A stretch of 64,000 nt of DNA from an uncultured Candidatus Saccharibacteria bacterium (GTDB lineage: Bacteria > Patescibacteriota > Minisyncoccia > Phycocordibacterales > EsbW-18). A program made the position numbers and the translations under genes. The stretch is from positions 508-64,507 of the forward strand of contig CAYZIR010000005.1 in NCBI GenBank assembly GCA_964478705.1, read 5' to 3'. Positions 4,441-60,227 of the stretch are shown here, piece by piece. How positions within the stretch are numbered: position 1 is the first letter of the stretch; each line of letters begins with the position of its first letter. Below the pieces are notes generated by a model that was not told where the DNA came from, did no database searches, and was given only the letters and a program-made list of their open reading frames with translations.

Positions 4441-4902
4441 ATGAAACGTTCTTTCTTCCAACGCCTCACTGGAGCAATCAATACGGATGACGAATTTTTT
4501 ATTGACGACTCTGAACCGGTCGTGAAGCGTTCAGGTGAGCGTCTCCTCTCGCTCGCAGAAGACAAAGAGCAAGAAGCGGAGCTCGCGGTTGATGTGAGTC
4601 AAACACCAAACGAAATCATCATCAAAACCATGGTTGCTGGCGTAAGTCCTGATGAACTTGAAGTTTCAATAAGCCAAGAGATGGTCATCATTAAGGGATC
4701 ACGACGACAAGCATACGAAGTTGATGACAATGACTACTTCCACAAAGAACTCTACTGGGGTGCATTTGCCCGAACCATTCTTCTCCCTGCGGAAGTAAAA
4801 TCTGAAGATGCGGTTGCTGAAATCAAACACGGTCTTCTCACTATCCGCCTTCCAAAGATCGACAAGCAAAAGCAGACGAAGCTTCGTATCAAGACGATAT
4901 AA
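4441..4902 (+). CDS. Hsp20/alpha-crystallin small heat-shock protein
   Basis: Alpha-crystallin domain (..IIIKTMVAGVSPDELEVSISQEMVIIKG...GAFARTILLPAEV..AEIKHGLLTIRLPK). Start at ATG 4441 (MKRSFFQRL). Confidence 0.8.
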   Translation: MKRSFFQRLTGAINTDDEFFIDDSEPVVKRSGERLLSLAEDKEQEAELAVDVSQTPNEIIIKTMVAGVSPDELEVSISQEMVIIKGSRRQAYEVDDNDYFHKELYWGAFARTILLPAEVKSEDAVAEIKHGLLTIRLPKIDKQKQTKLRIKTI

Positions 4903-4912
4903 CAAAAACTCC

Positions 4913-4932
4913 CCTTTCGGGGAGTTTTTGTT
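4913..4932 (+). terminator. Rho-independent terminator after hsp20
   Basis: AAAAACTCCCCTTTCGGGGAGTTTTTGTT hairpin plus T-run. Confidence 0.7.
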
Positions 4933-4950
4933 ATGTGTGCTTGGGGGCGG

Positions 4951-5110
4951 TTCGGTCACGAATCACTAAGTATTTTGCTCGCTTTGCTCACAAAATCCTA
5001 AGTGTTCTCGACCCCGCCTCGCCCCGCTCTGCGGGGCTCCGGCCTTCGAATCCTTCCCGAAGCTAAAACAAAAGTCGCCGAATGCTGACGCATCCGGCTC
5101 CTTTGTTTTT
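4951..5110 (-). repeat. ~160-bp tRNA-3'-flanking element bounded by 14-bp direct repeats of the tRNA-Phe 3' end
   Basis: GTGCTTGGGGGCGG at 4937..4950 and 5111..5124. Interior has hairpin CAAAACAAAGGAGCCGGATGCGTCAGCATTCGGCGACTTTTGTTTTAG and module GGATTCGAAGGCCGGAGCCCCGCAGAGCGGGGCGAGGCGGGGTCGAGAACACTTAGGATTTTG, homologous to the element 3' of tRNA-Leu(TAA) at 24758..24916. Confidence 0.7.
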
Positions 5111-5111
5111 G

Positions 5112-5185
5112 TGCTTGGGGGCGGATTCGAACCGCCGACCCTCTGCTCTTCAGGCAGATGCTCTAACCAACTGAGCTACCCAAGC
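5112..5185 (-). tRNA. tRNA-Phe (anticodon GAA), CCA not encoded
   Basis: Cloverleaf GCTTGGG/TA/GCTC..GAGC/TCTGC-CTGAAGA-GCAGA/GGCGG-TTCGAAT-CCGCC/CCCAAGC-A read on minus strand. Confidence 0.9.
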
Positions 5186-5186
5186 A

Positions 5187-5270
5187 TAATTCTTCTCTAA
5201 CCAATCCCGACGCTTCGGTCGGGACCCCGACCTCCGCCTTGCGGAGCGTCGGGGCTGAGCTACCCAAGCA
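5187..5270 (-). repeat. Partial tRNA-Phe 5' copy (nt 1-15 plus 16-25) interrupted at D-loop position 15/16 by a 50-nt GC-rich hairpin
   Basis: CTGAGCTACCCAAGCA at 5255..5270 duplicates 5171..5186. Insert TCCCGACGCTTCGGTCGGGACCCCGACCTCCGCCTTGCGGAGCGTCGGGG at 5205..5254. Near-identical insert at tRNA-Thr (60162..60211) and a related one at tRNA-Arg (5844..5903). Confidence 0.75.
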
Positions 5271-5464
5271 AATGAGGATGACACGCAGCGTTTAGGACGA
5301 AGGTTTCGAGGCGAGAGAAAAAGGAAGCTCGCTTACTTTTTCTTGAGACCGAGGAACCGGGAGTCCGAAGCTATGTGGTCCGAACGCCGCTTGGGTATGG
5401 TACTCCATATCCAAGTCTTGCGTATTCGCCATTTTACCACAATTTTCTAGCCTCTCAATGTACG

Positions 5465-5713: not shown

Positions 5714-5828
5714 GACTGAATTATATCATGCATCATTATGATATAGTCGTTTTACGCCCTCATATGAGTACATATGAGATCGGCGTTCGGACAGAATAAA
5801 AGCAAGCTTTCATTCTGCATCCTCACTT

Positions 5829-5916
5829 GCCCTCATAGTTCAAAGCCGACGCTACGAAGTAGGTCTACTCCCCGATTCACGCCTCGCGTGGCGTCGGGGC
5901 TGATAAGAAGGTGTAC
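5829..5916 (+). repeat. Partial tRNA-Arg 5' copy (nt 1-15) followed by a 60-nt GC-rich hairpin insert
   Basis: GCCCTCATAGTTCAA (5829..5843) is identical to tRNA-Arg nt 1-15; insert AGCCGACGCTACGAAG...GGCGTCGGGGCTGA (5844..5903) shares the ends AGCCGACGCT / GCGTCGGGGCTGA with the Phe and Thr inserts. Confidence 0.7.
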
Positions 5917-5918
5917 GC

Positions 5919-5990
5919 GCCCTCATAGTTCAACGGATAGAACAACTCCGTCCTAAGGAGTGGATCTAGGTTCAATTCCTGGTGAGGGCA
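5919..5990 (+). tRNA. tRNA-Arg (anticodon CCT)
   Basis: GCCCTCA acceptor pairs with TGAGGGC; anticodon stem ACTCC/GGAGT; loop GTCCTAA. Confidence 0.85.
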
Positions 5991-6188
5991 CAAAACAAAG
6001 GAGTCGGATGCGTCAGCATTCGGCGAGTTTTGTTTTGTAGCTTCACAACAGGGATTGAAAGTGAGTGCGGGGCACCCCGCCAGTAGGCGGGGTCGCACGA
6101 ACAGGGCCGAGCGGAACGAGGAGCGACGGCGACGAGTGAGCGCTTGGCCAATTCCTGGTGAGGGCACAAAACAAAGGAGTCGGATGCG
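5991..6188 (+). repeat. tRNA-Arg 3'-flanking element bounded by 39-bp direct repeats that include the tRNA 3' end
   Basis: AATTCCTGGTGAGGGCACAAAACAAAGGAGTCGGATGCG at 5974..6012 and 6150..6188. Interior carries hairpin CAAAACAAAGGAGTCGGATGCGTCAGCATTCGGCGAGTTTTGTTTTG and motif GGAGCGACGGCGACGAG. Confidence 0.7.
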
Positions 6189-6660: not shown

Positions 6661-6745
6661 TATCCACTAAAGTATATCAAAAACGTATCTATCTGTGTGG
6701 GATTCTCGCGCCTCAACCTTGGCTCAAGACAATTTTACGAACCGG

Positions 6746-6816
6746 TGCGAGTAGCGAGAATCGAACTCGCGTCTGATGCTTGGGAAGCATCCATTCTGCC
6801 ACTGAACTATACTCGC
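6746..6816 (-). tRNA. tRNA-Gly (anticodon CCC), CCA not encoded
   Basis: GCGAGTA acceptor, anticodon stem GATGC/GCATC, loop TTCCCAA, TTCGATT T-loop. Confidence 0.85.
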
Positions 6817-6821
6817 AAAAT

Positions 6822-6860
6822 TCAACGGGGTCGCGTTGTACCACTAAACTAATCCCGCGT
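6822..6860 (-). repeat. tRNA-like 5' half fragment upstream of tRNA-Gly
   Basis: GCGGGATTAGTTTAGTGGTACAACGCGACCCC (read on minus strand) looks like an acceptor/D-arm but has no matching 3' half. Confidence 0.4.
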
Positions 6861-11058: not shown

Positions 11059-11094
11059 AAAAGCCCCCGTGTATGCGAGGGCTTCTATGACTAT

Positions 11095-11509
11095 GGTTGT
11101 GCACCTGTAAGCCGAATTCTGTTATCGACAAGCATGTGTCTAGGACAAAGATTACTCAATGCCTCAAGCGGCTCTTCCCGCGAACGGGACACGGCCTTGC
11201 ACGTAGGTAAGGATTTTGCCGTTTCACCTCATTGTTGCCAATGAGACACCCCATGAGATAGTGATGCCCGACTTCTTACTTATTTGGACTCTTATCAAAG
11301 TCCGATTACCAAGTAGTTCAGACACCTTTATCTCACGGGGTCCCTATCCTTTCGGAATCGGGCGTTTCTGCTCGCACCTCTATGCTCACGCACGACGGGC
11401 GTTACCCGCTACCGTCCTCTCGGCATCGCAGAGCGATGACGGACGTGTTCGGACTTTCCTCATCCTCCATAGCTTTAGCGACGGAGGATGCGCTTGCCCG
11501 ATGACAACC
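11095..11509 (-). ncRNA. rnpB: RNase P RNA (bacterial type A)
   Basis: Minus strand reads ..GGGCAAGCGCATCCTCCGTCGCTAAAGCTATGGAGGATGAGGAAAGTCCGAACAC.. (P2/P3/P4 5' strand), GGGTAACGCCCG, GGTGAAACGGCA, and ..ACAGAATTCGGCTTACAGGTGCACAACC (P4 3' strand, P1 closing). P1 GGTTGT pairs with ACAACC. Followed by hairpin GAAGCCCTCGCATACACGGGGGCTTTTGTG (terminator, 11060..11090). Confidence 0.85.
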
Positions 11510-16358: not shown

Positions 16359-16801
16359 TTGGTTTCGTATCCGAAACGCCAGTGTTTTCCTACACGTGCG
16401 GTTTTACGACGATGACAATTTGCACACCTCACATCACATTTTCCTATCTCATTCATTATCTCAGCTACAGAATAACTGTGCCGGAACATTTGAGAGATAG
16501 GGAGTCGTTTATCGGAGCGATGGTCGAAGTCTAGCACAACAATATCGTCTTCTCCACAGTCAATACAAGGATTCGCTTGAAGGTGTCGGAATATCACTTC
16601 CCTCAATACCTGCCTTTGTTTCTTGTTCCATTTCTTCGCTTTTTTAATATATTTTGTACGGTTTGCTTTATAATGGTCTTTTCTGTAGAGAGCATGACAG
16701 CTTTTACAAACATAGTGTCGTAAACCTTTATCTGCATCCTTCCAATTGAAATCATTCTCTTTCTTTCCTTCTTTGCATGTAGCACAAATCTTTGATTTCA
16801 T
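16349..16801 (-). CDS. Free-standing HNH endonuclease with N-terminal Cys4 zinc finger; its last four codons overlap the first 10 nt of tRNA-Trp
   Basis: CIDCGEDDIVVLDFDHRSDK...CDVRCANCHRRKT (HNH/His-Me finger); N-terminal CATCKEG..CKSCH. Final codons AAG GGC CTA TAG coincide with tRNA-Trp nt 1-10 on the same strand. Confidence 0.7.
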   Translation of the reverse strand: MKSKICATCKEGKKENDFNWKDADKGLRHYVCKSCHALYRKDHYKANRTKYIKKAKKWNKKQRQVLREVIFRHLQANPCIDCGEDDIVVLDFDHRSDKRLPISQMFRHSYSVAEIMNEIGKCDVRCANCHRRKTARVGKHWRFGYETKGL

Positions 16802-17562: not shown

Positions 17563-17568
17563 AAAATA

Positions 17569-17607
17569 ACAAACAACCTACAACAAACAACCTACAACAA
17601 ACAACCC
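17569..17607 (-). repeat. GGTTGT-type tandem repeat directly abutting the tRNA-Tyr 5' end
   Basis: tRNA sense strand: GGGTTGTTTGTTGTAGGTTGTTTGTTGTAGGTTGTTTGTTATTTTGC then tRNA. Same motif upstream of tRNA-Leu(TAG) at 25285..25323. Confidence 0.7.
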
Positions 17608-17619
17608 GAAAAAGCAAAA

Positions 17620-24667: not shown

Positions 24668-24755
24668 GCCCGGGTGATGGAATTGGTAGACATACAGGAC
24701 TTAAAATCCTGGGGCCGTGAATTCGGTCGTGTGGGTTCGATTCCCACCCTGGGCA
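24668..24755 (+). tRNA. tRNA-Leu (anticodon TAA), long variable arm
   Basis: GCCCGGG acceptor, loop CTTAAAA, variable arm GGGCCGTGAATTCGGTCGTG, TTCGATT. Confidence 0.88.
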
Positions 24756-24757
24756 CT

Positions 24758-24916
24758 CGGAGGAAATTTAAACATTTTGATCGACGGTGGGAATCGAAGG
24801 CCGGAGGCGCGCCATTGGTCTGAGCGCCGACCTGCCTGCCGGCAGGCAGGGGCGGGGTCGAGAGTACTTAGAATTTTAGGCGCATAGCGACTAAAATACT
24901 TGAGTTGCTCGTGACC
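24758..24916 (+). repeat. 159-bp tRNA-3'-flanking element bounded by 19-bp direct repeats of the tRNA-Leu(TAA) 3' end
   Basis: GATTCCCACCCTGGGCACT at 24739..24757 and 24917..24935. Interior ..GGAATCGAAGGCCGGAGGCGCG..GGGGCGGGGTCGAGAGTACTTAGAATTTTAGGCGCATAGCGACTAAAATACTTGAG..CGTGACC is homologous to the tRNA-Phe element. Confidence 0.75.
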
Positions 24917-24960
24917 GATTCCCACCCTGGGCACTTACAGAATATTTTCAAAATAGGGCA

Positions 24961-25011
24961 CTTTGTTGTAGAGTTGTTTGTACCACCCATATAGACAACC
25001 TATATGGGTGG
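24961..25011 (+). repeat. GGTTGT-repeat plus tRNA-Lys 5'-end fragment embedded in an 11-bp palindrome
   Basis: TTGTTGTAGAGTTGTTTGT then ACCACCCATA (= tRNA-Lys nt -1 to 9), forming the palindrome CCACCCATATAG-ACAACC-TATATGGGTGG. Confidence 0.5.
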
Positions 25012-25153
25012 GGCGTGCGGACCACATGGCGTAGATAGCTCGGGCTCCCATTTTCTCGTGCTCAAGCAAAAATAAGAACAAGCTCTTATTTTTGCTCTCC
25101 ACTCGAAAACACGCCCTCGCTTGAGAGACACACCGCGTGTCATCCTTACTAAA

Positions 25154-25284: not shown

Positions 25285-25323
25285 TTTGTTGTAGGTTGTC
25301 TGTTGTAGGTTGTTGGTTATTTC
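25285..25323 (+). repeat. GGTTGT-type tandem repeat abutting the tRNA-Leu(TAG) 5' end
   Basis: TTTGTTGTAGGTTGTCTGTTGTAGGTTGTTGGTTATTTC followed immediately by the tRNA. Confidence 0.7.
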
Positions 25324-25405
25324 GGGCGAGTGGCGAAATTGGTAGACGCGCTAGCCTTAGGAGCTAGTGTCGCAAGACATGGAGGTTCGAGTCCTCTCTC
25401 GCCCA
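25324..25405 (+). tRNA. tRNA-Leu (anticodon TAG), long variable arm
   Basis: GGGCGAG/CTCGCCC acceptor, loop CTTAGGA, TTCGAGT. Confidence 0.88.
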
Positions 25406-25570
25406 CAAAACAGAGAGCCGAGTGCGTCAGCATTCGGCAATTTTGTTTTGCGCGATTGAGAGAGGGCTCGAAGGGCGGAACCCCGCAGAGCGAGGTGAGC
25501 CGGGTCGAGAAATTTTTACGAGCGACGGCGAGTAAAAAAATGTTCTTGGCCGAATTCTCTCGGCCAAAGC
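25406..25570 (+). repeat. tRNA-Leu(TAG) 3'-flanking element with degenerate direct repeat
   Basis: Hairpin CAAAACAGAGAGCCGAGTGCGTCAGCATTCGGCAATTTTGTTTTG, module GGGCTCGAAGGGCGGAACCCCGCAGAGCGAGGTGAGCCGGGTCGAGAAA, motif ACGAGCGACGGCGAG. Degenerate repeat TCTCTCGGCCAAAGC (25556..25570) versus tRNA 3' TCTCTCGCCCACAAAAC. Followed by a perfect hairpin 25569..25597. Confidence 0.65.
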
Positions 25571-27667: not shown

Positions 27668-28018
27668 TTATCGCTGAACGCCTGGAACAGGAAGTGAACC
27701 TCCTGTCTGAACATCAAACGCATTTGCAATGAATTTGACGAGACCAACAACGGCAACCATCACGAAGAGTGCGATGATACCGTAAATCATCAATTGCTTT
27801 CCTTCTGAACTCTTGTCCTCGTCGCCCTGTGCGAAGATGAACTTCACCAAACCCCAGAAGAATGCGAGAAGTGCCAAACCAACAACGATAGGTGTTGCAA
27901 GGTTTACCAATCGTCCGATTGCTTGCACAAGGTTCTCGATATTACCGAGTGACTGTGCGCTCGCAAGCGACGGAAGAAATGCGAATGCCGCAAGAGCGAG
28001 TACTGAATACTTTTTCAT
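27668..28018 (-). CDS. Pilin-like small secreted two-TM protein, paralog 6 (VirB2/TrbC-like topology)
   Basis: Signal peptide (..LASAQS), TM1 ..IVVGLALLAFFWGLVKFIFAQGD, charged loop, TM2 MIYGIIALFVMVAVVGLVKF. Confidence 0.5.
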   Translation of the reverse strand: MKKYSVLALAAFAFLPSLASAQSLGNIENLVQAIGRLVNLATPIVVGLALLAFFWGLVKFIFAQGDEDKSSEGKQLMIYGIIALFVMVAVVGLVKFIANAFDVQTGGSLPVPGVQR

Positions 28019-28099
28019 AGTGTTACTGTTTTTGAATCTAATTGCCTTTTATGGCCTTGTAATACGTATAAGTAAACCACGCTATCCCTAAACTATCAA

Positions 28100-28510
28100 T
28101 CAGCGGTTGTTGAAAGCTGGAATGGTCGGTGGAGGTAGCCCTTGGTTGTTCCCTTGATTGGTCTCATTAATGCCAACCGCACGCTGAAGGAAGCGAACGA
28201 TACCGAAGACTGAAAACATGACGAAAAGCGCAATAACACCGTACGTCATAAGCGTTCTTCCGGCCTCCTTCTCTTTTGGATCCCCTGCTTTGATGATGAA
28301 TTTGACCAATCCAAAGAAAAATACGAGGAGTGCGAGGGATGCGAGAATGCCAATAGCGATATTGATAATCGAAGTAATACCATCAAGTAAATTACAGAGC
28401 GTTGGATTGAGTGCTCCGGTACAATTTACGATTGCTGCGTCCACCGCAAACGGTGTGAGCATGAGTGCAAGAATACCGAGCCCGAAAGAAATTTTGATAT
28501 ATCGTTTCAT
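28100..28510 (-). CDS. Pilin-like small secreted two-TM protein, paralog 5
   Basis: ..FFFGLVKFIIKAGDPKEKEAGRTLMTYGVIALFVMFSVFGIVRF.. Confidence 0.5.
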   Translation of the reverse strand: MKRYIKISFGLGILALMLTPFAVDAAIVNCTGALNPTLCNLLDGITSIINIAIGILASLALLVFFFGLVKFIIKAGDPKEKEAGRTLMTYGVIALFVMFSVFGIVRFLQRAVGINETNQGNNQGLPPPTIPAFNNR

Positions 28511-28530
28511 ACAATAATGATACTAAGCGC

Positions 28531-28851
28531 TTAATTAGGTAATAGTGCGTTCTTAAGGAATTGTACGATGCCCCAGAACGAAAACAAGACAAACAACCCG
28601 AGAATACCGTAGCCCATCGTGCTTTTTGCACTCAGCTTCTTCTTCTCATCGCCTGCATACAAGATGTATTGCACAACCCCCCACATAAAGAAGAGCACCG
28701 CGAGCGACGAGAGGAGACCAATCAACGGGTTGACGAGCCCTGTAAACATTTCAATCAGTTGTTTGAGATTTTGTGGGGCACCCGCTGCCACCGCACTTAT
28801 CGGCAGTACTGCGCCAAGCACCATACCTATTCGAGGGAAAAATTGTTTCAT
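28531..28851 (-). CDS. Pilin-like small secreted two-TM protein, paralog 4
   Basis: ..LFFMWGVVQYILYAGDEKKKLSAKSTMGYGILGLFVLFSFWGIVQF.. Confidence 0.5.
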   Translation of the reverse strand: MKQFFPRIGMVLGAVLPISAVAAGAPQNLKQLIEMFTGLVNPLIGLLSSLAVLFFMWGVVQYILYAGDEKKKLSAKSTMGYGILGLFVLFSFWGIVQFLKNALLPN

Positions 28852-28855
28852 ATGA

Positions 28856-29263
28856 TTATTTGAGCACTTCTGTCTTTGGCGTCGGTTCTTTTTTTAGGTC
28901 GTCGACGGTTCCTTTAATGACATTGGCAAGTACTGTTGCACCAAGTAAAATCGCCGCCCCAATGACGGTGTAAAGAAATGATTCCTTCGCTTTCTTAAGC
29001 TCATCTTTATTACCCCGCGCCTTCACGAAGAGAAATCCTGAGTAAATGATGAAAATTGCAACAACATAGAATCCAATTTCTGCCACTTTTTCTGAAATCG
29101 CAATGATTGCGCCTCCAAGGTCGTCACAGTTTTCACATGCAAGCGGGTTCTCTATACCTTTTACCTCACCTGTTCCAACACCTCCCTGAGCAAAGACTGC
29201 AACAGGAATCATAATAAAAAGTGCAAGAACCAAGCCAAAAATATGTCGTTTATATGATTTCAT
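28856..29263 (-). CDS. Pilin-like small secreted two-TM protein, paralog 3
   Basis: Signal peptide ..AVFAQG; ..FYVVAIFIIYSGFLFVKARGNKDELKKAKESFLYTVIGAAILLGATVL.. Confidence 0.45.
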   Translation of the reverse strand: MKSYKRHIFGLVLALFIMIPVAVFAQGGVGTGEVKGIENPLACENCDDLGGAIIAISEKVAEIGFYVVAIFIIYSGFLFVKARGNKDELKKAKESFLYTVIGAAILLGATVLANVIKGTVDDLKKEPTPKTEVLK

Positions 29264-29690
29264 GAATACTATCTATTCTACCTTGTTTCTGAAAAACCTC
29301 ATCCACATCGGTATCCAAAAAGAAGTTCGTGAAGAGATTCACAATCAGCCACGCTGAAAATGTTATGGTAAGACCCCAAAATACATTCTGAAAGATCTTT
29401 TGTGCCTTACCTCGGTCTCCTGGGTTAGCGCTCGATGTTAGGTAGAGAAACCCTGCCCACGAGAAGAGAATTGCTGAGAGTGGAATCGCGATTGTCATCA
29501 AAAAATCAATGACGTTCTCGATGAGTGTTATAAAGTCAAGAAAATTACAATCCGGCCCTGCACATGGCACAAGGCCACCCGCACCAGGTATAGGATCCGC
29601 TGCCAAGACCGCCATCGGAACGAATATAAGACATATAAGCGCTATTGAGACCGCAATGCCACGGCAACGCATGTTCATATGCTCTTTCAT
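29250..29690 (-). CDS. Pilin-like small secreted two-TM protein, paralog 2
   Basis: Start reset to ATG 29690 (MKEHMNMRCRG..). Signal peptide ..AVLAADP; two TM with loop ..SSANPGDRGKAQK. Confidence 0.4.
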   Translation of the reverse strand: MKEHMNMRCRGIAVSIALICLIFVPMAVLAADPIPGAGGLVPCAGPDCNFLDFITLIENVIDFLMTIAIPLSAILFSWAGFLYLTSSANPGDRGKAQKIFQNVFWGLTITFSAWLIVNLFTNFFLDTDVDEVFQKQGRIDSIHEII

Positions 29691-29763
29691 ATATCCTTGC
29701 ATTGTATCGTAGAACATACGGTAACCACGCACGATAGAATCAAAAGAAGTGGACAACTGCCCT

Positions 29764-31059
29764 CTATCGGATCTCTGCACCCAAACGTGCTGACACATCC
29801 GCTACGGCGCGAGAAATCGAGAGACGCCCCGATGTGATATTGGCGACCATGTCAGAGAACGCCTTGTCTGTTTCAGACGAATTTGGGTCGAGAAATGCCG
29901 ATGCAATCAATGCTTCGTCGTAAAAAAGTGCTTGATAGGGGTCTTGAGGTTCACCAGCGAGCAAATCACGACGCACTGGAGGAAGATTCATCTTTTCGCT
30001 CCACAACGCCCCGGCGTCTGAGCCAGAGAGCAACGTCATGACACGAAAGGCACCCGCGACATTATCTGTCTGTTTTACGATAGCAATGCCATATATTCTT
30101 CCGAACGTTGTCACAAAGGAACTTTCACGAATCTGTGGAATGGCCGTCACATCGAAGTCGAGATTCGGATTTTTGTCACGGATTGCGAAGAGTTCGCTTG
30201 CAAAACCGAGGTACAGAGCAAGATCGCCTCGAATAAAGAAATCTTGGGAACGCGGAAGCGCTCTATTCCATGAGTAGAGTGGCTTAACGGGATTTGCAAA
30301 TTCCGTATAAAAACGAAGTGCAGAATCTGCTGGTGCCTCAGGAAGACCTAAGTCATCCGCGATGATGACACCTAAACGATTTCCTGCATCACGAAGCGTG
30401 ATAGGATTGCCCGCTTGCATGATTAAGGTTGCGATGATTTCTCGCGCATGATCAACGTTGCCGTATTCACCGAGTGCAATGACACTTTGGAGCACATTGA
30501 ACGAATCATCCACCTTAGTGAGTTTTGGATGGAAGTCGACAAGTTCATCCCAGAAGCGCGGTGGCTCAGGCAATCTCGCTGTATTCAATAACGTTCTGTT
30601 CCAGTACATCATCAGAGGATCGACGAGGATTGGAAGGCCGAGAATCCCATTCCGAGAGACAAAAATCTCTGATCCTTGTGTGTAGGTGTCACGAAAGAGG
30701 CGTTCGGTGATTGATTCAAACGGCACGGTGTAGAGCTTGTCTTCATACTCTGCAAGATGATCCCCTTGTACGATAATCGCATCGGGTCCGGTTCCTGATG
30801 CAAGGGCGTCAATCAACTCTTGCTTAAATTCGGCCTCCGAAAATGCCTCGTAGGTCACTTGTAGAGCACCACTCTGTGCTTCGTTGTATTTACTGACCAC
30901 TGAATTCACGATATCCGCTGGCAGGGTTCCCCAGACAATCGCTTCAGCAGGAACATCCTCACCACTACCGCCTGATTTACCGAACGTCGCAATAACAATA
31001 ACGCCGGCAACAATAAAAAAACCAAAAATACCGAGGAGTACTGACTGAAATGTACGCAT
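29764..31059 (-). CDS. Membrane-anchored extracellular solute-binding protein (ABC-transporter SBP family 1-like)
   Basis: N-terminal TM anchor then ~400-aa periplasmic-binding-protein fold; first gene of the minus-strand unit containing the pilin-like array. Confidence 0.55.
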   Translation of the reverse strand: MRTFQSVLLGIFGFFIVAGVIVIATFGKSGGSGEDVPAEAIVWGTLPADIVNSVVSKYNEAQSGALQVTYEAFSEAEFKQELIDALASGTGPDAIIVQGDHLAEYEDKLYTVPFESITERLFRDTYTQGSEIFVSRNGILGLPILVDPLMMYWNRTLLNTARLPEPPRFWDELVDFHPKLTKVDDSFNVLQSVIALGEYGNVDHAREIIATLIMQAGNPITLRDAGNRLGVIIADDLGLPEAPADSALRFYTEFANPVKPLYSWNRALPRSQDFFIRGDLALYLGFASELFAIRDKNPNLDFDVTAIPQIRESSFVTTFGRIYGIAIVKQTDNVAGAFRVMTLLSGSDAGALWSEKMNLPPVRRDLLAGEPQDPYQALFYDEALIASAFLDPNSSETDKAFSDMVANITSGRLSISRAVADVSARLGAEIR

Positions 31060-39204: not shown

Positions 39205-42108
39205 TTACCCCTCCCTCACCACGAGGTTAAGGACCTTGTTCTTAATATAGACAATTTTGGCTATATCCTTGCCGTTAAGCCATTTTTCGATGTTTTCCTC
39301 GCCCCGAGCCAAGGCAAGAACGGTCGCTTCCTCGGTATCTCGAGAGCAGGTTATCGTTCCCCTGACCTTTCCATTGACCTGAATGGCTATAACGACCTCA
39401 GCCTCAACAAGCTTGTCCGAATCGAAGGTAGGCCACAAAGCCTCGTGAACTGATGACGTATTGCCCATGCTCTCCCAGAGCTCTTCCGTGAGGAACGGTG
39501 CGAATGGTGCCAAAAGGAGTAGGAGCGTAGTATATGCCGTGCGAGAAACAGCCGTCTCTTTTTCGATTGCATTCGTTAGAATCATGAGTTGCGAGACTGC
39601 TGTGTTCATACGAAGTGCTTCGATATCCTCCCCCACTTTCTTGATGGTTTGATTGAGGACCGTTTCAAGCTCAGGCGACAACACGACGTCCTCGACTCTT
39701 TCCTGCAGACGCGCAACGCGTTCAAGAAAGCGTCGTACACCAACGAGTCCATCGGTTGACCACGCGATCGCTTGATCGAACGGTCCCATGAACATCTCAT
39801 ACGTGCGGAGCGCATCTGCACCAAAGCGTTCAATAATGTCATCCGGGTTTACCACGTTCCCTTTCGACTTACTCATTTTCTCCCCGCCTTCGGCGAGAAT
39901 GAGTCCGTGGCTCGTACGCCGTTGGTATGGCTCAGATGTTGGAACAACGCCAATGTCGTAGAGAAACTTATGCCAAAAGCGCGAATAGAGAAGGTGAAGC
40001 GTTGTGTGCTCCATACCACCGTTGTACCAATCAACCGGAAGCCAGTGCTCAAGTTTTTTCTTGTCGGCGAGTACTTCCGCATTCTTCGGATCGCAGTAGC
40101 GAAGGTAATACCATGATGAACCTGCCCAGTTTGGCATAACATCGGTTTCTCGTTTCGCATTACCACCGCACGACGGACATGTCGTATTGACCCACTCATC
40201 CATGTTCGCGAGAGGTGAATCCCCTGTGTCAGTTGGTTCGTAGCGCTCAACGTGTGGTAGTTCTACCGGAAGGTCGGATTCGGAGACCGGCACCCATCCG
40301 CACGATTCGCAGTTGACCATTGGAATCGGTTCGCCCCAGTAGCGTTGACGTGAGAAGACCCAATCACGGAGTTTATATTTCGTCGTCCATGTGCCACCAA
40401 CTGCTTCAGTTATTTTTTTCCTTGCATCTTCACTGGCTAGACCATCAAATTGTTCAGAGTTGAGAAGTATTCCTTCACCAGTGTAAGATTGCTGACCGCC
40501 CACATAAAACTCCGCATATTTTTTGTGGTGTGGCCACGTAATCGTTGAAATAAGTTTGTCCTTTGAAACAACGATGAGTTCGTGTCTCCCCTCTTCTACT
40601 TCTGACTGTGAACGTTCTGTGGAGTTTAGAATAATTTCAATGGCAGGGCCGAGTGTTCGCTGATTTTTATTTTTTGTGTGTCGATATCCATGACAAGAAA
40701 TCATTGAGGTCATTGAATGCATGTTCACTTCAAAATCTGTGAATCCTGTTTCTTCAATAACCTCTCTGCGAACTGCGGTCAGAAGATCCTCGCCATCTTC
40801 AACTCCTCCACCCACCAAGTGGACATGATCTCCATCTTTAAGAAGGTAGAAGTTCCCCATGGTATCGTGAATGATTGCATCAACAGTTCGTCGGTTTAAC
40901 GTTTCGAGACCGGCACGCTCTTGGTGTATTCCCGCCCCTATTTCTTGATATGCGACTACCTGTCGCATAGGCAAATTAAATTTCTGTGCAAACGCGAAAT
41001 CACGTTCATCGTGTGCAGGGACCGCCATCACCGCACCGGTGCCGTACGAACCAAGCACGTAATCCGCAACATACACAGGAATCTCTTCATTGTTCGCAGG
41101 ATTGATTGCTGTAATACCTTCGAGCCGAACACCAGTCTTTTCTTTCCCTTCCGCGGTACGTTCCATTTCTTCCTTATTCTTTGCCTCTTCGATATATCGC
41201 AGAATCTCTTCTCTGTTCTTTATCGACTCATGACTAGCGACTAATGACTGCACCAAGGGGTGCTCAGGTGCTAAAACGATGTAGGTAGCGCCGAAGATGG
41301 TATCTGGTCTGGTTGTAAAAACAGTGATTTCTTTTTTCTCGCCCCCAGTAGCTAGAACCTGGAATCTGATCTCAGCTCCTTCGCTCTTGCCAATCCAATT
41401 ACGTTGTCCTGCTTTAGCCCGCTCAATATAGTCAACGGTGTCGAGGTCATCGTAGAGGCGTTCGGCGTATTTTGTGATCGCAAGCATCCATTGCTCTCGT
41501 TCGCGTTTCTCAACCTCCGTCCCACATCGCTCACACTTACCATCAACAACCTCTTCGTTTGCGAGACCGATTTTATCTTTCGGACACCAATTAATGGGAA
41601 CTTTTGATTTGTATGCAAGATCGTGTTTGAAGAGTTGCAAGAAAATCCATTGCGTAAAGCGGTAGTATGCGGGGTCAGTTGTGTTTACCTCACGCTCCCA
41701 ATCAAAGGAGAGTGCTAAGCGCTTCATCTGTGCGCGGTAATTGTCGGTATTTTCTTTTGTTACCTCACGTGGATCGCGTCCGACCTTGATTGCATAGTTC
41801 TCTGTAGGAAGACCGAAGGCGTCCCAACCAATTGGATAGAGCACATTCTCCCCTTGTCTGCGACGCTTACGAGCAACGACGTCGAGTGCAGTGTAGCCAC
41901 GAACATGACCGACATGGAGCCCTTCTCCTGACGGAAAGGGAAATTCGACGAGTAAGTATGTTTTCTTTTTATCCGCGCTATCGGACGCTTTGGGGGCACT
42001 CTTCTCAAAGATTTCGCGCCATTTCTCTTCAATCTGTTTGGAATCGTATTCGCGCATGAATAGCTTATAGCTTCTAGGTACGAGCGTGTAGGTAGGGACA
42101 TCATACAA
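39205..42108 (-). CDS. leuS: Leucyl-tRNA synthetase with inserted NUDIX hydrolase domain
   Basis: HVGHVRGY (HIGH), KMSKSKGNVV, CP1 editing domain (TTRPDT..YVLGSYGTGAVMAVPAHDERDFAFA). Inserted ~150 aa (aa ~385-535, nt ~40506..40956) contains Nudix box GGGVEDGEDLLTAVRREVIEETG. Confidence 0.9.
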   Translation of the reverse strand: MYDVPTYTLVPRSYKLFMREYDSKQIEEKWREIFEKSAPKASDSADKKKTYLLVEFPFPSGEGLHVGHVRGYTALDVVARKRRRQGENVLYPIGWDAFGLPTENYAIKVGRDPREVTKENTDNYRAQMKRLALSFDWEREVNTTDPAYYRFTQWIFLQLFKHDLAYKSKVPINWCPKDKIGLANEEVVDGKCERCGTEVEKREREQWMLAITKYAERLYDDLDTVDYIERAKAGQRNWIGKSEGAEIRFQVLATGGEKKEITVFTTRPDTIFGATYIVLAPEHPLVQSLVASHESIKNREEILRYIEEAKNKEEMERTAEGKEKTGVRLEGITAINPANNEEIPVYVADYVLGSYGTGAVMAVPAHDERDFAFAQKFNLPMRQVVAYQEIGAGIHQERAGLETLNRRTVDAIIHDTMGNFYLLKDGDHVHLVGGGVEDGEDLLTAVRREVIEETGFTDFEVNMHSMTSMISCHGYRHTKNKNQRTLGPAIEIILNSTERSQSEVEEGRHELIVVSKDKLISTITWPHHKKYAEFYVGGQQSYTGEGILLNSEQFDGLASEDARKKITEAVGGTWTTKYKLRDWVFSRQRYWGEPIPMVNCESCGWVPVSESDLPVELPHVERYEPTDTGDSPLANMDEWVNTTCPSCGGNAKRETDVMPNWAGSSWYYLRYCDPKNAEVLADKKKLEHWLPVDWYNGGMEHTTLHLLYSRFWHKFLYDIGVVPTSEPYQRRTSHGLILAEGGEKMSKSKGNVVNPDDIIERFGADALRTYEMFMGPFDQAIAWSTDGLVGVRRFLERVARLQERVEDVVLSPELETVLNQTIKKVGEDIEALRMNTAVSQLMILTNAIEKETAVSRTAYTTLLLLLAPFAPFLTEELWESMGNTSSVHEALWPTFDSDKLVEAEVVIAIQVNGKVRGTITCSRDTEEATVLALARGEENIEKWLNGKDIAKIVYIKNKVLNLVVREG

Positions 42109-55556: not shown

Positions 55557-57950
55557 TTAGCGCACCTCCCATCCCTTTCCGCGAATCTCATCCTCAATCT
55601 TACCCATGATCTCACTCACCTCAACATCAGAGAGCGTTTTTTCGTTCGATTGAAAGACGATGTGATATGCGTATGATGTTCTTCCCTCTTTGGTGAATGT
55701 ATCGAAAAGATCCAACCGAGCAAGAAGTTTGCCAGCATGACTTTTGATGACGCCTTCGAGATCTTCTGAGCTGTTGGTTGTTGGTTGTTGGTTGTTGGTT
55801 CCCCCGACCCATACTGCAATGTCACGAAGGATAAAAGGATAGACCGAGATCGGCGCGAATGTCATGTTTGGCAAACGTGGCAAGTCGCCGTACGAGTCAG
55901 GAGTTGGAAGCGATTTGATCGTTTTTGAAAGGGATGCGGTGGCAATGTTTGCTCGCTTCATCCATACAAGCGGAGAAGTGGAGGTCGTCGTCACTGCTGC
56001 AATTGCAGCATCAAGATCTCTGCCCTTTTCTGTCGCAATCCCAATTTGTTGTTCCTCACCAGTCTTACTAAATATGGTGCCAATTTCGAAAATTCGTACA
56101 GCATCGACGCCAATGAGCGGCCTATTTTTTTGGTTGAGCTCAAGGGCAGCCTTTAAACCTTCTACGAGTGACGAACGAAGATATTTTTTATCATTAGCAA
56201 TCGGGTTCGCTACTTCAATTTCACCATCGTCTTGAAATGAGTATGTCGACACCTCGGAAAAGCCGGCATCAACAAGCGCTCGGCGGACGAGCGCTTTGTA
56301 GTATTCGTTCTTGTTGACCGCAGGTGTGAATCCGTCGAAAGGCAACGGTGTTGATGGAATCGATTCAAGACCTTTGAGCCGGCCGATTTCTTCGATCAAA
56401 TCTTCTTTGATACGGATGTCGATGCGCGGCGCGGGAACTGTCACCACAAAGCGTGGTTCGTTGTTCGTGATGATGCGACGATAGCCGACGATATTTTCAA
56501 ATGCCTTGGAACCAGAAAGATCTTCAATGACGACTTCGCCCTTATCCCATTTTCCTGATGCATGAAGGATTTTCCCTTCACCAAGATAGATGCCGTTGTG
56601 ATCGATACCTGCCGAGAGCTTTGTCCCTGCCATGAATTCATGCGAGACACTTGTCTGACGAACTTGGTCGATACCAAGACTTTCAATATGTTCTGTCGAT
56701 CCATCACCCTTTCGATCTGAGAATACGATGTCTCCCGCACGAAGATCATTTGCCTCAACCGGCGCACTAAAAACAAACTGATCAACAGCCATACGCGGAA
56801 TTGCGATTCCAGCTTGTGCGTAGAGATATGCGACCAAAGATGAGCAGTCGAAAGCTCTTGGCGCATCACTCAAAACACTTGCACCGTATTTGTATGGAGC
56901 GCCAACCAAGGTTGGAGCAAGTTTCAAAATCTGTTCAAGCGGCTGTATGTAGGTGTATTCAAAACCAAGACGCTTGAAGTAGTCTTCGACCTCACTTTGA
57001 GAACACGTCGTGCCGAGCGCTGTGTTAATTTCCGAAAGTGAGACGCCAACAACGTAGAGATTCTTTTTGTTTGGATACGACTCAACAATGTCTTGTGCGA
57101 CTTTTCCATTCGCGAGCTCTTCAATGAGTGCCGAAAGACGCTCCATAGCAATCGCAGTAAGTTCAGGACTGATTCCCTGCTCGAATCGGATTGACGCATC
57201 GGTGCGAAGTCCGAGCTTCTTTGATGTCTTGCGAATGTTTACGGGATCAAAATTGCAGACCGAAAGAACGATGCGTGTCGTGTTCGCATCAATACCCGAT
57301 GTCGAACCGCCTTTTACGCCAGCAATATCGAGTGCTTTCTCGCTGTCGCTGATAACAAGAACGTCTGGGTTCAGTACGAATTCCTTACCATCAAGGGTGG
57401 TGATTGTTTCATCTTCTTTTGCTGAACGTATTGAAAGAGCTGTTGGTTGTGAGTTGTTGGTTGTGAGTTTGTCATAGTCGAATGCGTGAACCGGCTGACC
57501 TGTTTCGAGCATCGTGAGGTTCGTTGCATCAACAACGTTGTTGATCGAACGCTGTCCGTGTGCAGCAAGTTTTATTTTGAGCCATTCGGGAGATTCGCCG
57601 ATTGTGACACCTTCGACATAGCGCTTCATTGCGCGTGGAACGAGCTTTGAGTTTTCGATGGTAAGCGAAAGATGATCGCTTGTTGAAATACCTGAGTCGG
57701 TTTTTGGATGAGCCTCAGGAATGTTTGCTGTGACATTGAGAAGCGCGGCGACTTCACGAGCGATACCGTGGTATGAAAAACCATCGTGGGAACGGTTTGG
57801 AAGCACTTTGATATCGAGAATCGTATCGCTGCCGTGTGACTCGGTTCCGTCGATTTCAAATGCATGCATCGTAATCGTGCGCGACAAATCAGCAACCGAT
57901 GGAAGCGGTTTGTCGAAATATTCCTGAAGCCATGCGTAGGAGAATTTCAT
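55557..57950 (-). CDS. pheT: Phenylalanyl-tRNA synthetase beta subunit carrying an inserted NlpC/P60 domain and two in-frame microsatellite insertions
   Basis: B1 and B3/4 (..PEWLKIKLAAHGQRSINNVVDATN..), B5 (..VEDYFKRLGF..), B6/7 (..VTVPAPRIDIRIKEDLIEEIGRLKG..), FDX-ACB C-terminus. aa ~340-490 (nt ~56481..56933) carry APYKYGAS..FDCSSLVAYLY..AGDIVFS..HNGIYLGEGKILHAS. Repeat-coded peptides TTNNSQPT (nt 57441..57464) and GGTNNQQPTTN (nt 55770..55802). Confidence 0.85.
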   Translation of the reverse strand: MKFSYAWLQEYFDKPLPSVADLSRTITMHAFEIDGTESHGSDTILDIKVLPNRSHDGFSYHGIAREVAALLNVTANIPEAHPKTDSGISTSDHLSLTIENSKLVPRAMKRYVEGVTIGESPEWLKIKLAAHGQRSINNVVDATNLTMLETGQPVHAFDYDKLTTNNSQPTALSIRSAKEDETITTLDGKEFVLNPDVLVISDSEKALDIAGVKGGSTSGIDANTTRIVLSVCNFDPVNIRKTSKKLGLRTDASIRFEQGISPELTAIAMERLSALIEELANGKVAQDIVESYPNKKNLYVVGVSLSEINTALGTTCSQSEVEDYFKRLGFEYTYIQPLEQILKLAPTLVGAPYKYGASVLSDAPRAFDCSSLVAYLYAQAGIAIPRMAVDQFVFSAPVEANDLRAGDIVFSDRKGDGSTEHIESLGIDQVRQTSVSHEFMAGTKLSAGIDHNGIYLGEGKILHASGKWDKGEVVIEDLSGSKAFENIVGYRRIITNNEPRFVVTVPAPRIDIRIKEDLIEEIGRLKGLESIPSTPLPFDGFTPAVNKNEYYKALVRRALVDAGFSEVSTYSFQDDGEIEVANPIANDKKYLRSSLVEGLKAALELNQKNRPLIGVDAVRIFEIGTIFSKTGEEQQIGIATEKGRDLDAAIAAVTTTSTSPLVWMKRANIATASLSKTIKSLPTPDSYGDLPRLPNMTFAPISVYPFILRDIAVWVGGTNNQQPTTNSSEDLEGVIKSHAGKLLARLDLFDTFTKEGRTSYAYHIVFQSNEKTLSDVEVSEIMGKIEDEIRGKGWEVR

Positions 57951-60142: not shown

Positions 60143-60150
60143 AATATATT

Positions 60151-60227
60151 TATTCTACCAAAGCCGACGCTTCGGTCGGCTCCCCGACCCTCGCCCTGCG
60201 AGGCGTCGGGGCTGAGCTAAAGCGGCA
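60151..60227 (-). repeat. Partial tRNA-Thr 5' copy interrupted at D-loop 15/16 by a 50-nt GC-rich hairpin (sibling of the tRNA-Phe insert)
   Basis: CTGAGCTAAAGCGGCA at 60212..60227 duplicates 60128..60143. Insert AGCCGACGCTTCGGTCGGCTCCCCGACCCTCGCCCTGCGAGGCGTCGGGG (60162..60211) is ~85% identical to 5205..5254. Confidence 0.75.

Follow-up and report, generated by a model that had tools for sequence, protein, structure and literature searches.

The window, a 64-kb stretch of DNA from an ultra-small bacterium of the Candidate Phyla Radiation (CPR), carries a gene-less insert of about 160-200 nt 3' of four tRNAs, those for Phe, Arg-CCT, Leu-TAA and Leu-TAG. The order of parts in these modules is the tRNA tail (a), a terminator hairpin (H), the tail again in inverted orientation (a'), a core of about 105 nt and the displaced old tail. 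No description of such elements was found in the literature, and the tRNA-tail modules apparently form a widespread, undescribed family of miniature elements. We tentatively favor the reading that they are miniature non-autonomous site-specific integrative elements, mobilized in trans, that insert in the T-loop of a tRNA, tmRNA or tRNA-like gene. A preliminary description of the window had reported four tRNAs with a family-related, gene-less element bounded by tail repeats; this holds, with the tRNA positions unchanged.

The closing repeat of each window module is the tRNA segment from T-loop position 56 through the 3' end. The repeats had been taken as copies of the tRNA 3' terminus; they do reach the 3' end, but they start inside the T-loop, at C56. 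On the reverse strand, tRNA-Phe(GAA) (5111..5185), of which the last approximately 20 nt (from C56) would be the tail supplied by the element, is followed directly 3' of the discriminator base by a terminator-like hairpin H (5065..5110; CAAAAACAAAGGAGCCGGATGCGTCAGCATTCGGCGACTTTTGTTTT), also present 3' of Arg-CCT and Leu-TAG and of other tRNAs in four MAGs. Next on that strand lie the a' segment (IR-L, 5045..5064; AGCTTCGGGAAGGATTCGAA), an imperfect reverse complement of tRNA-Phe positions 54-73, and a branched type A core (4955..5044) with helices P1, P2 and P4-P5-P3, conserved GGGGTCGAGAACAC and GTGATTCGTGAC, covariation and a fold z of -5.8. The module closes with the displaced tRNA-Phe tail (DR-R, 4936..4954), which runs from C56 to the 3' end with one deletion, and directly after it stands a bidirectional hsp20/tRNA terminator (4897-4935). 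The Phe direct repeat (4936-4950 = 5110-5124) is exact over 15 nt, rather than the 14 given earlier, and reaches about 19 nt (4936-4954) when one indel is allowed.

The other three modules lie on the forward strand. After tRNA-Arg(CCT) (5919..5991) comes an H hairpin (5992..6037) that is 96% (43/45 nt) complementary to Phe H on the opposite strand, that is, the same sequence in tRNA orientation. It is followed by an IR-L that is an imperfect reverse complement of the tRNA-Arg tail (6038..6059; TAGCTTCACAACAGGGATTGAA) and by a type C core (6060..6148; ...GGCGGGGTCGCACGAAC...GAGCGACGGCGACGA...GCGCTTGGC). The long direct repeat of this module (5973-6012 = 6149-6188) is exact, as had been described, over 40 nt instead of 39. 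Its second copy (6149..6188) combines the tRNA-Arg tail with the left half of H, stops in the H loop (GGATGCG) and is now read as a truncated second tandem unit; the same truncation point is seen after tRNA-Gly in relative L127. The module of tRNA-Leu(TAA) (24668..24756) is a copy without the H hairpin, with an AT-rich spacer (24757..24785), an IR-L GGTGGGAATCGAA (24786..24798) that is the exact reverse complement of tRNA positions 54-66, and a type A core (24799..24915) whose enlarged P2 holds the palindrome CCTGCCTGCCGGCAGGCAGG. Its DR-R (24916..24934) repeats the tRNA tail at 24738-24756, and the length of 19 nt stands. After tRNA-Leu(TAG) (25324..25406) come a variant H hairpin (25407..25450), an IR-L ATTGAGAGAGGGCTCGAA (25455..25472) that ends in 15 nt (GAGAGAGGGCTCGAA) of which 14 agree with the complement of the tRNA tail, a core that is a hybrid of types A and C (25473..25550) and a second tail copy (25551..25566; CGAATTCTCTCGGCCA), which is degenerate as first described. 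The functional tRNAs at all window modules are intact.

Homology was tested with a covariance model (R1) built from unrelated metagenome copies and run with filters off over the whole 64-kb window. The Phe module (97 bits, E = 3e-20) and the Leu-TAA module (62 bits, E = 4e-12), which had been thought homologous, both match this one model, as does the Leu-TAG module (37 bits, E = 1.7e-6). There was no further significant match in the 64 kb, the divergent type C core of Arg-CCT being beyond the reach of R1; the Arg-CCT module has the hairpin and the GGCGGGGTCG motif in common with other window modules. The hairpin core TGCGTCAGCATTCGGC occurs exactly three times, always immediately 3' of the discriminator base, in agreement with the earlier count of three copies. 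The module core is under strong structural selection, with 95.8% of cells paired and compensatory changes in 24 of 25 pairs, and it also has about 40 nt of conserved unpaired sequence. Rfam 15 (gathering threshold and E <= 10) returned matches to tRNAs only, with nothing for the core, H or the 5' inserts.

H is terminator-like: the H spacers contain a hairpin in 58 of 59 cases, with a T-run behind it in 53 of 59, which bears out the suggestion that the hairpin may terminate the transcript. Its loops are of RNA type, unlike the tips of the core hairpins, which are mostly c(GNA)g and T-rich triloops, GNRA being rare and UUCG absent. On the tRNA-sense strand, G.T exceeds A.C (60:35 and 43:20). 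Together, the core loop types and this excess fit folding of one DNA strand, and the loop types point, on statistical grounds and with hairpin stabilities taken from general knowledge, to a core that folds as single-stranded DNA. In many copies, a' together with the tail takes on a minihelix-like shape, made up of an acceptor-like stem, a T-stem and a small hairpin at the center. T-loop sequence universal to tRNAs is present at both core junctions. H and core assort independently, one H being found with a type A or a type C core, and the type C core itself occurs at Arg-CCT in the window, at tRNA-Tyr in L125 and at tRNA-Phe in L144.

Further copies proved to be numerous. The family is present in at least 120 metagenome contigs as well as in CPR MAGs, and its hosts comprise about 20 tRNA identities plus tmRNA. 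Directly 3' of a tRNA or tmRNA are 77 of 129 cores, and 14 more stand in tandem; the arrays beside tRNA or tmRNA genes contain up to four units, with H and core differing between units. Among 132 CPR tRNAs with full flanks, the tRNA 3' end is repeated downstream in 71 and upstream in 2, and its reverse complement is found downstream in 68 and upstream in 1. Thus, chance is excluded as the source of the recurrence. The direct repeat has a sharp T-loop edge, at C56 in types A and C and at T55 in type B, from where it runs to the tRNA end, and the junction position is uniform across more than 100 loci. Unit length is likewise constant, the repeats of essentially every single unit being spaced 180-220 nt apart. 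There is also a mirror-image family at the 5' side, whose modules are placed between the original promoter and the tRNA; these 5' counterparts were absent from the preliminary description, as were the inverted tail copy and the covarying core. RNase P RNA was considered as an extra target at two loci (L074, L107), where Rfam gave no RNase P gene upstream, and no claim is made for it.

Modules are gained, lost and swapped at orthologous tRNAs. The tRNA-Phe sequence is identical in the window and in relatives L125, L126 and L142, and among these only the window has the module; L144 has a tRNA-Phe module with a core of another type. Conversely, L127 carries modules at Gly-CCC and Trp, both of which are without one in the window. 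Orthologous loci thus do not have the same flanks everywhere, and the presence/absence variation expected of the elements is found. The Phe module of the window is 83% identical over 193 nt to the tRNA-Gly(TCC) module of another MAG, versus at most 71% for coding DNA. The copies that a genome carries differ considerably from each other, and just two core pairs at different tRNAs are at least 92% identical, which indicates that movement is neither recent nor frequent; recent transposition bursts were rejected on this count.

The origin of the two tail copies can be read from loci at which they differ. In L022, L037 and L038, the functional tRNA has a CCA, to which a' is complementary, and the displaced copy has none and retains its own terminator; L144 shows the converse CCA asymmetry. 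At 142 positions where the tail copies differ, a' matches the functional copy in 106 and the displaced copy in 15. The a' segment stays complementary to the tRNA in situ, and the displaced tail decays. Because a' tracks the functional tRNA, the insert must have brought its own tail and terminator: the element carries both. The earlier interpretation of the repeats as target-site-like duplications is therefore abandoned, since the two copies can differ (CCA in one only). Simple target-site duplication of the casposon or CRISPR kind was rejected because the copies differ at birth, and a retro-origin, in which a mature tRNA is copied with its CCA, was rejected because module-bearing tRNAs show no higher CCA frequency (8/68 versus 8/60).

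The reading as miniature integrative elements draws on the T-loop boundary of the repeats, the element's own tail, the restored terminator and the turnover at orthologous loci. It draws equally on the tandem arrays, the range of about 20 tRNA identities plus tmRNA and the likeness of the Phe and Gly(TCC) modules relative to coding DNA, as well as on structural selection on the core, the lack of an internal ORF and the constant unit length. The integrated layout would be tRNA positions 1-55, the element (a_el, H, a' and core) and then a_orig. Here a_el, the element's tail copy from C56 to the 3' end, would complete the functional tRNA, the H terminator would restore the end of the transcription unit, and a_orig, the displaced chromosomal tail, would decay afterwards. 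In the free form, a' would pair with a_el to give a rod or dumbbell whose stem is the double-stranded target tRNA segment and whose caps are H and the core. The element may fold as single-stranded DNA, and a trans-acting enzyme, for which a tyrosine recombinase is the most plausible candidate, would recombine it with the T-arm of the target gene, in the manner of CTX phage at dif and of integron attC sites. Tandem arrays could arise by repeated insertion, or by slippage between tail repeats, and units could be deleted by recombination between these repeats; the universal T-loop sequence flanking the core would let cores and hairpins reshuffle between tRNA-specific stems. Of these steps, passage through single-stranded DNA and through a circular form is inferred, and the recombining enzyme is hypothetical.

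Searches for such an enzyme or a carrier bear on this reading. About 40 of the 54 window ORFs were scanned with Pfam, without a match to a recombinase, transposase, HUH protein or RT, and TnpB, IscB, IS110 and TnpA/RAYT were not found among them either; no recombinase or other enzyme recurs as a neighbor among 1,650 ORFs at 124 module loci, and no integron integrase was seen. As first described, the elements are without an integrase, there being no ORF inside the module in any unit, and no kb-scale version bounded by direct repeats occurs in the loci examined. An autonomous parent element was rejected on these four results: no internal ORF, no kb-scale version, no recurrent neighboring enzyme and no Pfam match to one among the window ORFs scanned. 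By blastn, the modules matched neither phage nor plasmid records. Viral contigs gave 0 matches in a first motif scan and 14 in a second, all chance matches and none with covariance-model support, and no free or circular module copies were found. Against the mini-element reading thus count both the lack of an enzyme gene, in the ORFs scanned or as a neighbor at the 124 loci, and that of a free, circular, phage-borne or plasmid-borne copy. In addition, one core family serving about 20 tails needs frequent retargeting of a and a', for which we only propose mechanisms, and long-term covariation could instead reflect a host-level function. The upkeep of a' alongside decay of the displaced tail is not what a purely selfish, immobile relic would predict.

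A more specific form of the mini-element reading, which we regard as doubtful, sees in the modules the integrated state of a site-specific mobile element smaller than any known, a gene-less single-stranded rod or dumbbell of about 200 nt with a re-templatable tRNA-tail stem and with caps consisting of the terminator and a core that recruits a host recombinase or polymerase. If so, and with the 5' family included, parasitic mini-elements would keep rebuilding CPR tRNA genes from both ends.

Alternatively, the core may represent a new class of tRNA-linked structured RNA. In this rather unlikely scenario, read-through of H would produce it as a host-functional ncRNA or as a cis-acting RNA element in the 3' trailer of the tRNA; the closing helix would mimic a tRNA acceptor/T-stem, the ends could be set by RNase P, RNase Z and the CCA-adding enzyme, and the repeats would be by-products of a gene that duplicates with tRNA tails. 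The very strong covariation and the conserved unpaired nucleotides of the core, the excess of G.U over A.C on the sense strand, the RNA fold score (z = -5.8) and the minihelix-like pairing of a' with the tail in many copies would all suit an RNA, as would the maintenance of a' in situ and the age and divergence of intragenomic copies. However, the units are preceded by a terminator-like hairpin with a T-run (53/59), and a promoter has no room. The a' segment complements the single-stranded NCCA end, which follows the logic of a hairpin and not that of tRNA mimicry, and decay affects the displaced tail, with which the RNA helix would have to be closed. Relatives whose tRNAs are identical differ in whether they have a module, tandem arrays contain diverged units, the triloops are of the DNA-minihairpin type instead of GNRA or UUCG, and no Rfam family matches.

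It is unlikely that the modules reflect no dedicated mobility, their zig-zag order a, H, a', core, a having arisen from errors made when highly transcribed tRNA genes are replicated or repaired. The inverted copy would result from fold-back priming at H, template switches at T-loop microhomology would bring in a core from another tRNA locus, and quasi-palindrome correction would keep a' matched. A direct-inverted-direct order is what two template switches characteristically leave, and both core junctions lie in T-loop sequence common to all tRNAs; the tracking of the functional tRNA by a', the independent assortment of cores and hairpins (type C at Arg in the window and at Phe in L144) and the failure to find an enzyme gene in the window ORFs scanned or at the 124 loci also agree with errors. 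The CCA asymmetry between tails, however, implies imported DNA; the core keeps its sequence and structure across distant CPR lineages, unlike error-driven filler DNA, and junction and unit length are sharp and uniform over more than 100 loci.

Decay of ordinary integrase-encoding prophages or islands to attL/attR plus an arm is very unlikely as the source of the modules, even though the tail repeat starts in the T-loop, displaced tails retain their own terminators and tmRNA is among the targets. A repeat spacing held at 180-220 nt with no kb-scale versions in the loci examined, the lack of ORF remnants, compensatory evolution in a homologous core and the lack of copies in viral contigs and in phage or plasmid records all contradict it, and the proposal that the elements are att-site relics is given up for the same constancy of length, structural selection and missing kb-scale versions. 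Highly improbable is an arrangement in which a' (or the displaced tail) serves as guide, with the core as guide-RNA scaffold for an RNA-guided enzyme encoded elsewhere (TnpB/IscB omega-RNA or bridge-RNA-like) that targets tRNA genes. The layout does resemble a guide joined to a structured scaffold of about 105 nt, specificity for the tRNA is confined to the guide-like segment, and the sharp junction beside GTTC resembles a target-adjacent motif. Such a guide, however, would direct the enzyme to an essential tRNA gene of the cell itself and lead to self-targeting, no TnpB, IscB or IS110 gene turned up among the scanned window ORFs or as a recurrent neighbor, the units are insulated by terminators and Rfam gave no omega-RNA or HEARO match.

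The modules are a large, apparently undescribed, structure-conserved nucleic-acid family, absent from Rfam, in genomes famed for reduction to essentials. They explain 'extra' tRNA fragments and inflated intergenic regions beside tRNA and tmRNA genes in CPR assemblies, displaced tRNA tails are no evidence of prophages, and the modules are markers of strain-level variation. If they are mobile, the minimum size of a site-specific integrative element falls to about 200 bp, and the target, the tRNA T-loop, is biology's most conserved sequence, hit harmlessly through a spare tRNA tail and terminator. A core that is instead an RNA, or a DNA fold that recruits a recombinase, would offer a new handle on CPR biology, which is otherwise experimentally hard to reach.

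Several known systems share features with the modules. Group I introns in tRNAs of Patescibacteria are structured non-coding insertions at tRNA genes in the same phylum; they sit in the anticodon loop at position 35/36 of a functional gene and are self-splicing (PMC13011429). A group I or archaeal-type tRNA intron was rejected for the modules, as the tRNAs are intact, the insert lies downstream, the core is only about 105 nt and no Rfam intron matches. Nor do the modules resemble retron ncRNAs, there being no RT in the window ORFs scanned or beside modules.

MITEs, REP/REPIN sequences and IS200/IS605 PATEs are, like the modules, small, non-coding, hairpin-rich, multi-copy and intergenic, and they depend on a trans-acting enzyme. 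Unlike these, the modules have no terminal inverted repeats of their own sequence and no short fixed TSD, are not dispersed (window copies occur only after tRNAs, as do most elsewhere) and hold host-gene sequence in both orientations. The ends AAAACAAAGG... and ...GTGATTCGTGAC are not inverted repeats, and the flanking repeats of 18-21 nt are not true duplications; the analogy with MITEs and REPs made in the preliminary description fails on the missing terminal inverted repeats and fixed short TSD. PATE/RAYT systems insert 3' of a fixed tetra- or pentanucleotide without duplication and have subterminal hairpins; the modules have hairpins and a junction that follows GTTC in the T-loop, but bear tRNA-specific sequence at their left end. 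Casposon and CRISPR Cas1-type integration, which duplicates 14-37 bp of target, likewise produces repeat-insert-repeat-insert arrays growing from one side, and some casposons target tRNA 3' ends. The module repeat, about 18-21 nt, is as long as the tRNA 3' segment; module repeats are not identical at birth, which speaks against fill-in duplication, and neither TIRs nor Cas1 are present.

The T-loop was reportedly named a classic sublocation of integration in tRNA genes by Williams in 2002. Islands and prophages at tRNA and tmRNA genes (tyrosine integrases), together with derivatives of them that lack the integrase (CIMEs, cis-mobilizable elements), share with the modules a repeat from the T-loop to the 3' end and a replacement tail that keeps the gene intact, as well as a tmRNA target, tandem accretion and presence/absence variation between relatives. 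Loop-start direct repeats, an element-supplied tail and presence/absence polymorphism, all marks of tRNA-targeting integrative elements, are thus found; an integrase in the element or in a related resident element was not (units, about 40 of 54 window ORFs and neighbors), and, unlike islands, module copies have none in or near them. Islands measure 5-100 kb and the modules about 200 bp, a 100-fold difference; an island serves one tRNA, whereas one module family serves about 20, and the modules additionally carry an inverted tail copy and a covarying branched core.

CTX-phage attP(+) at dif (an IMEX) and integron attC sites have inverted arms about 100 nt apart that fold to a hairpin mimicking the double-stranded target, as do the modules. 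The integrated order is also the same (target hybrid, element, inverted arm, loop, target hybrid), structure is conserved above sequence, and arrays extend beside the primary site. The modules accordingly show imperfect inverted arms folding round a branched center, greater conservation of structure than of sequence, and triloops compatible with DNA folding. In CTX and attC systems the enzyme acts in trans, and for the modules a recombinase and a single-stranded intermediate are presumed. The targets there are dif or attI, as opposed to the tRNA T-arm. Such sites carry conserved recombinase boxes (R''/R' RYYYAAC/GTTRRRY, or a dif-like 28-mer); in the modules an R/L box consensus is not apparent, the GTTCGA of the T-loop resembling GTTRRRY but not fitting. 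Unlike CTX and attC, the arms of a module are copies of each specific tRNA tail, so that the whole element is little beyond the site itself.

Four tRNA genes of the window, those for Phe, Arg-CCT, Leu-TAA and Leu-TAG, are each followed by the element that the preliminary description placed there, and the repeats are exact wherever this was claimed: 15 nt at tRNA-Phe (4936-4950 = 5110-5124), 40 nt at tRNA-Arg-CCT and 19 nt at tRNA-Leu-TAA, with a degenerate copy at tRNA-Leu-TAG. The hairpin core TGCGTCAGCATTCGGC, described as following the discriminator base, occurs exactly three times in the window and abuts that base each time. The window contains ten intact tRNAs (ARAGORN and Rfam); its gene content is typical of Campbellbacteria-like members of the Candidate Phyla Radiation (CPR), and its LepA shares 77% identity with the LepA of a Candidatus Campbellbacteria genome.

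The module has more parts than the preliminary description gave. In tRNA orientation, it consists of the tRNA tail (a), a hairpin with A and T tracts on its flanks (H), a reverse-complement copy of tRNA positions 54 to ~73 or 76 (a', or IR-L), a core of ~105 nt and a second direct tail copy from C56 on (DR-R). The tail is therefore present three times: direct, inverted and direct. A long hairpin can form from either a-H-a' or a'-core-a (z = -5.8 and -8.6), and many relatives have a' divided by a small additional hairpin into an acceptor part and a T-stem part. Among 132 CPR tRNAs with complete flanks, the upstream side serving as control, a direct tail copy is found downstream of 71 versus upstream of 2, and an inverted copy downstream of 68 versus upstream of 1. 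Repeat spacing in single units is 180-220 nt. No ORF was seen within any unit, and no kilobase-scale elements bounded by the same tail repeats were seen in the loci examined. At Arg-CCT, the 40-nt repeat stops within the H loop, and so does a similar one in L127 (L numbers denote CPR loci from metagenome contigs or MAGs; L125, L126, L127, L142, L143 and L144 are relatives retrieved through LepA); both are read as truncated second tandem units. A GC-rich palindrome, CCTGCCTGCCGGCAGGCAGG (24838-24859 (+)), which may be a small hairpin insert of its own within the Leu-TAA core, also lies within or beside modules of the L142 Gly trailer, L122 and L126.

A hairpin-based genome scan identified four CPR MAGs with this architecture, at Arg-GCG (in three) and at Gly-TCC, and the same loci hold additional modules at Arg-TCT and Arg-TCG. 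In a metagenome scan, the right end of the core has matches in at least 120 contigs. Of the 129 non-overlapping cores, from 100 loci, 77 stand directly 3' of a tRNA or tmRNA, 14 follow another core in tandem, 21 lie at contig edges and 17 are 'orphans'; ~20 tRNA identities carry them. Several orphans follow tRNA-like 3' ends uncalled by ARAGORN (tmRNA-like ...ATCTCCAC), and one, lacking tail copies, stands behind the rpsI terminator. Examples of arrays are three units behind tRNA-Gly(GCC) in L122, four cores behind tmRNA in L050, and five type B units with one of type A in L103. Some modules (L074, L107 and also L103) directly follow a conserved 3' end, ...ACAGTTC(G/T)AACATCCTCTACGACGGCGCCC, with a T-loop-like GTTCGAA inside; RNase P RNA was suspected as its source, without confirmation by Rfam.

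Orthologous loci retrieved via LepA homologues, and hence unbiased as to the element, differ in module content. At tRNA-Phe, the window has a module with a type A core; L125, L126 and L142, whose tRNA is identical to the window's, have none, nor does L127; L144, with the same neighbouring hsp20 terminator, has the same H family with a type C core, the right half of which is near-identical to the window Arg-CCT core. H and core assort independently. Modules absent from the window tRNAs Gly-CCC and Trp are present in L127, and that absent from tRNA-Tyr is present in L125 and L143. Uniform flanks at every orthologous tRNA, which would speak against integration, are therefore not what is found.

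Where the functional tRNA encodes CCA (L022, L037, L038), a' complements it (TGGTG...), and the displaced tail lacks CCA and has its own terminator behind it. The converse holds in L144, with CCA in the displaced copy and not in the functional one. At 142 positions (within 56-66) differing between the tail copies, a' agrees with the functional tRNA in 106, with the displaced copy in 15 and with neither in 21. Therefore, the inserted DNA consisted of H, a' and the core together with a new tail, and the repeats are not a target-site-like duplication; the insert pushed the old tail downstream, where it decays.

The 5' ends are also affected. Each of the window tRNAs Phe, Thr and Arg-CCT has upstream of it a displaced copy of its own first 15-25 nt, and the D-loop of that copy carries a ~50-nt GC-rich double hairpin. 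These mirror-image modules (5186-5270 (-), 60143-60226 (-), and 5757-5765 and 5829-5918 (+), respectively) consist of a copy of positions 1-15, the double hairpin, positions 16-25 and a 9-10 nt spacer before the real tRNA. In L142 and L126, the same promoter-proximal motif abuts tRNA-Phe directly, an empty site, and L003 and L001 differ by a 37-nt 5' insertion polymorphism. Such repeats occur in 21 of 132 CPR tRNAs; among them, L039 has 85-nt units in tandem, and L076 and L114 have a 30-nt repeat whose insert measures 170 nt. Upstream of the window tRNA-Gly(CCC) (6744-6816) lies a 30-nt 5' fragment (6829-6858 (-), GCGGGATTAGTTTAGTGG...) of a different Gly(CCC) allele, the one that functions in L125, L126 and L142; L143 shares the window's arrangement, and the window gene seems to have come in as a replacement copy. 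Thus, tRNA genes in these genomes are remodelled from both ends.

Several tRNAs also have a conserved leader of ~165 nt (~5271-5435 (-), 24981-25153 (+) and ~5750-5828 (+); also L004, L126, L127 and L142). It has a hairpin in which the 5' acceptor strand of the tRNA is joined by its complementary sequence (24983-25011 is one example), continues with GGACCACATGG... and ends with an A/T-flanked hairpin and GCGTGTCATCCTCAyTT immediately 5' of the tRNA; TACAAT in this segment of L127 is probably a -10 box. A second leader type, tandem TGTTGTAGGTTGT copies (25287-25314 (+), 17563-17610 (-); L142, L125, L126), lies directly 5' of Leu-TAG and Tyr, and of Trp in relatives. An ORF ending ...CDVRCANCHRRKTARVGKHW... 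(16359-16480 (-)), just 5' of tRNA-Trp, looks HNH-nuclease-like by eye and as delimited has no Pfam match; GIY-YIG genes lie near tRNAs in L126 and L143. Elsewhere in the window, bacterial class A RNase P RNA (11091-11509 (-)) was missed by the default Rfam scan because its 93.1 bits fall just below the gathering score of 100. Pfam places an inserted NUDIX domain in leucyl-tRNA synthetase (39205-42108 (-)) and an inserted NlpC/P60 domain in the phenylalanyl-tRNA synthetase beta chain (55557-57950 (-)), and four small genes in a row (27668-29798 (-)) match a type IV secretion pilin family (T4SS_pilin/TrbC).

Aligning 34 cores reveals a helix of three pairs (GNC with GN'C), the variable hairpin P2, the long composite helix P4-P5-P3 and several stretches that are unpaired but conserved (GGAG, CGAG, GGGGTCG(A/C)GAACAC and GTGATTCGTGAC). 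In 135 covariance-model matches, 95.8% of cells are paired versus 30-40% with partners slid, pairing being somewhat inflated by the model-fitted alignment; double changes occur in 24 of 25 pairs, none of 500 shuffles reaches the observed values, and a MAFFT alignment contains the same compensations. The core, in short, has a structure that is conserved and covaries. The model matches three cores in the window, those of Phe, Leu-TAA and Leu-TAG, and no others; the Arg-CCT module has a related type C core, also found 3' of tRNA-Tyr in L125 and tRNA-Phe in L144, and at other loci a shorter core, type B, takes this position. None of the module parts matches an Rfam family.

H resembles an intrinsic terminator, as the preliminary description had suggested: 58 of 59 spacers contain a hairpin, its loops mostly tetraloops with GNRA among them, and 53 have a T-run 3' of it. 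The hairpin tips of the core look different: P3 mostly ends in a triloop, for the most part c(GNA)g, and P2 in T-rich triloops, where GNRA is scarce and UUCG absent. As DNA, d(cGNAg) minihairpins have exceptional stability; structured RNAs instead favour GNRA and UNCG. On the tRNA-sense strand, G.T is in excess of A.C both within the core (60:35) and within a' (43:20), which fits one-strand folding, DNA or RNA alike. Every unit is terminator-insulated and lacks promoter space, and on balance folding as single-stranded DNA is favoured as an inference; that core or module is a functional RNA is unlikely. An error-driven origin is somewhat less probable still; quasi-palindrome correction, or selection, could keep a' matched to the tRNA in situ. 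A guide-RNA system is highly improbable. These three are kept alive by the ~20 tails that one core family serves and by the in situ match of a'; core swapping via T-loop homology would be a plausible route to the former.

The best available interpretation, held tentatively, is that of the preliminary description, a non-autonomous miniature integrative element; its labels of target-site duplication, MITE/REP and relic do not stand. There is a real chance that the family is something more unusual, a gene-less ~200-nt hairpin element or a new RNA class; no description of it was found in Rfam or the searchable literature. As an integrative element, the module appears to behave like a tRNA-targeting one cut down to its recombination site. 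The recombining enzyme would have to act in trans; no recombinase-type enzyme was detected in the ~40 of 54 window ORFs scanned, and no recurrent enzyme was found next to modules. In a free form, a' would pair with the tail into a stem copying the target, capped by H and the core, and strand exchange with the gene in the T-loop would yield exactly the order observed. Formal analogues of such a mechanism are CTX-phage attP(+) and integron attC.
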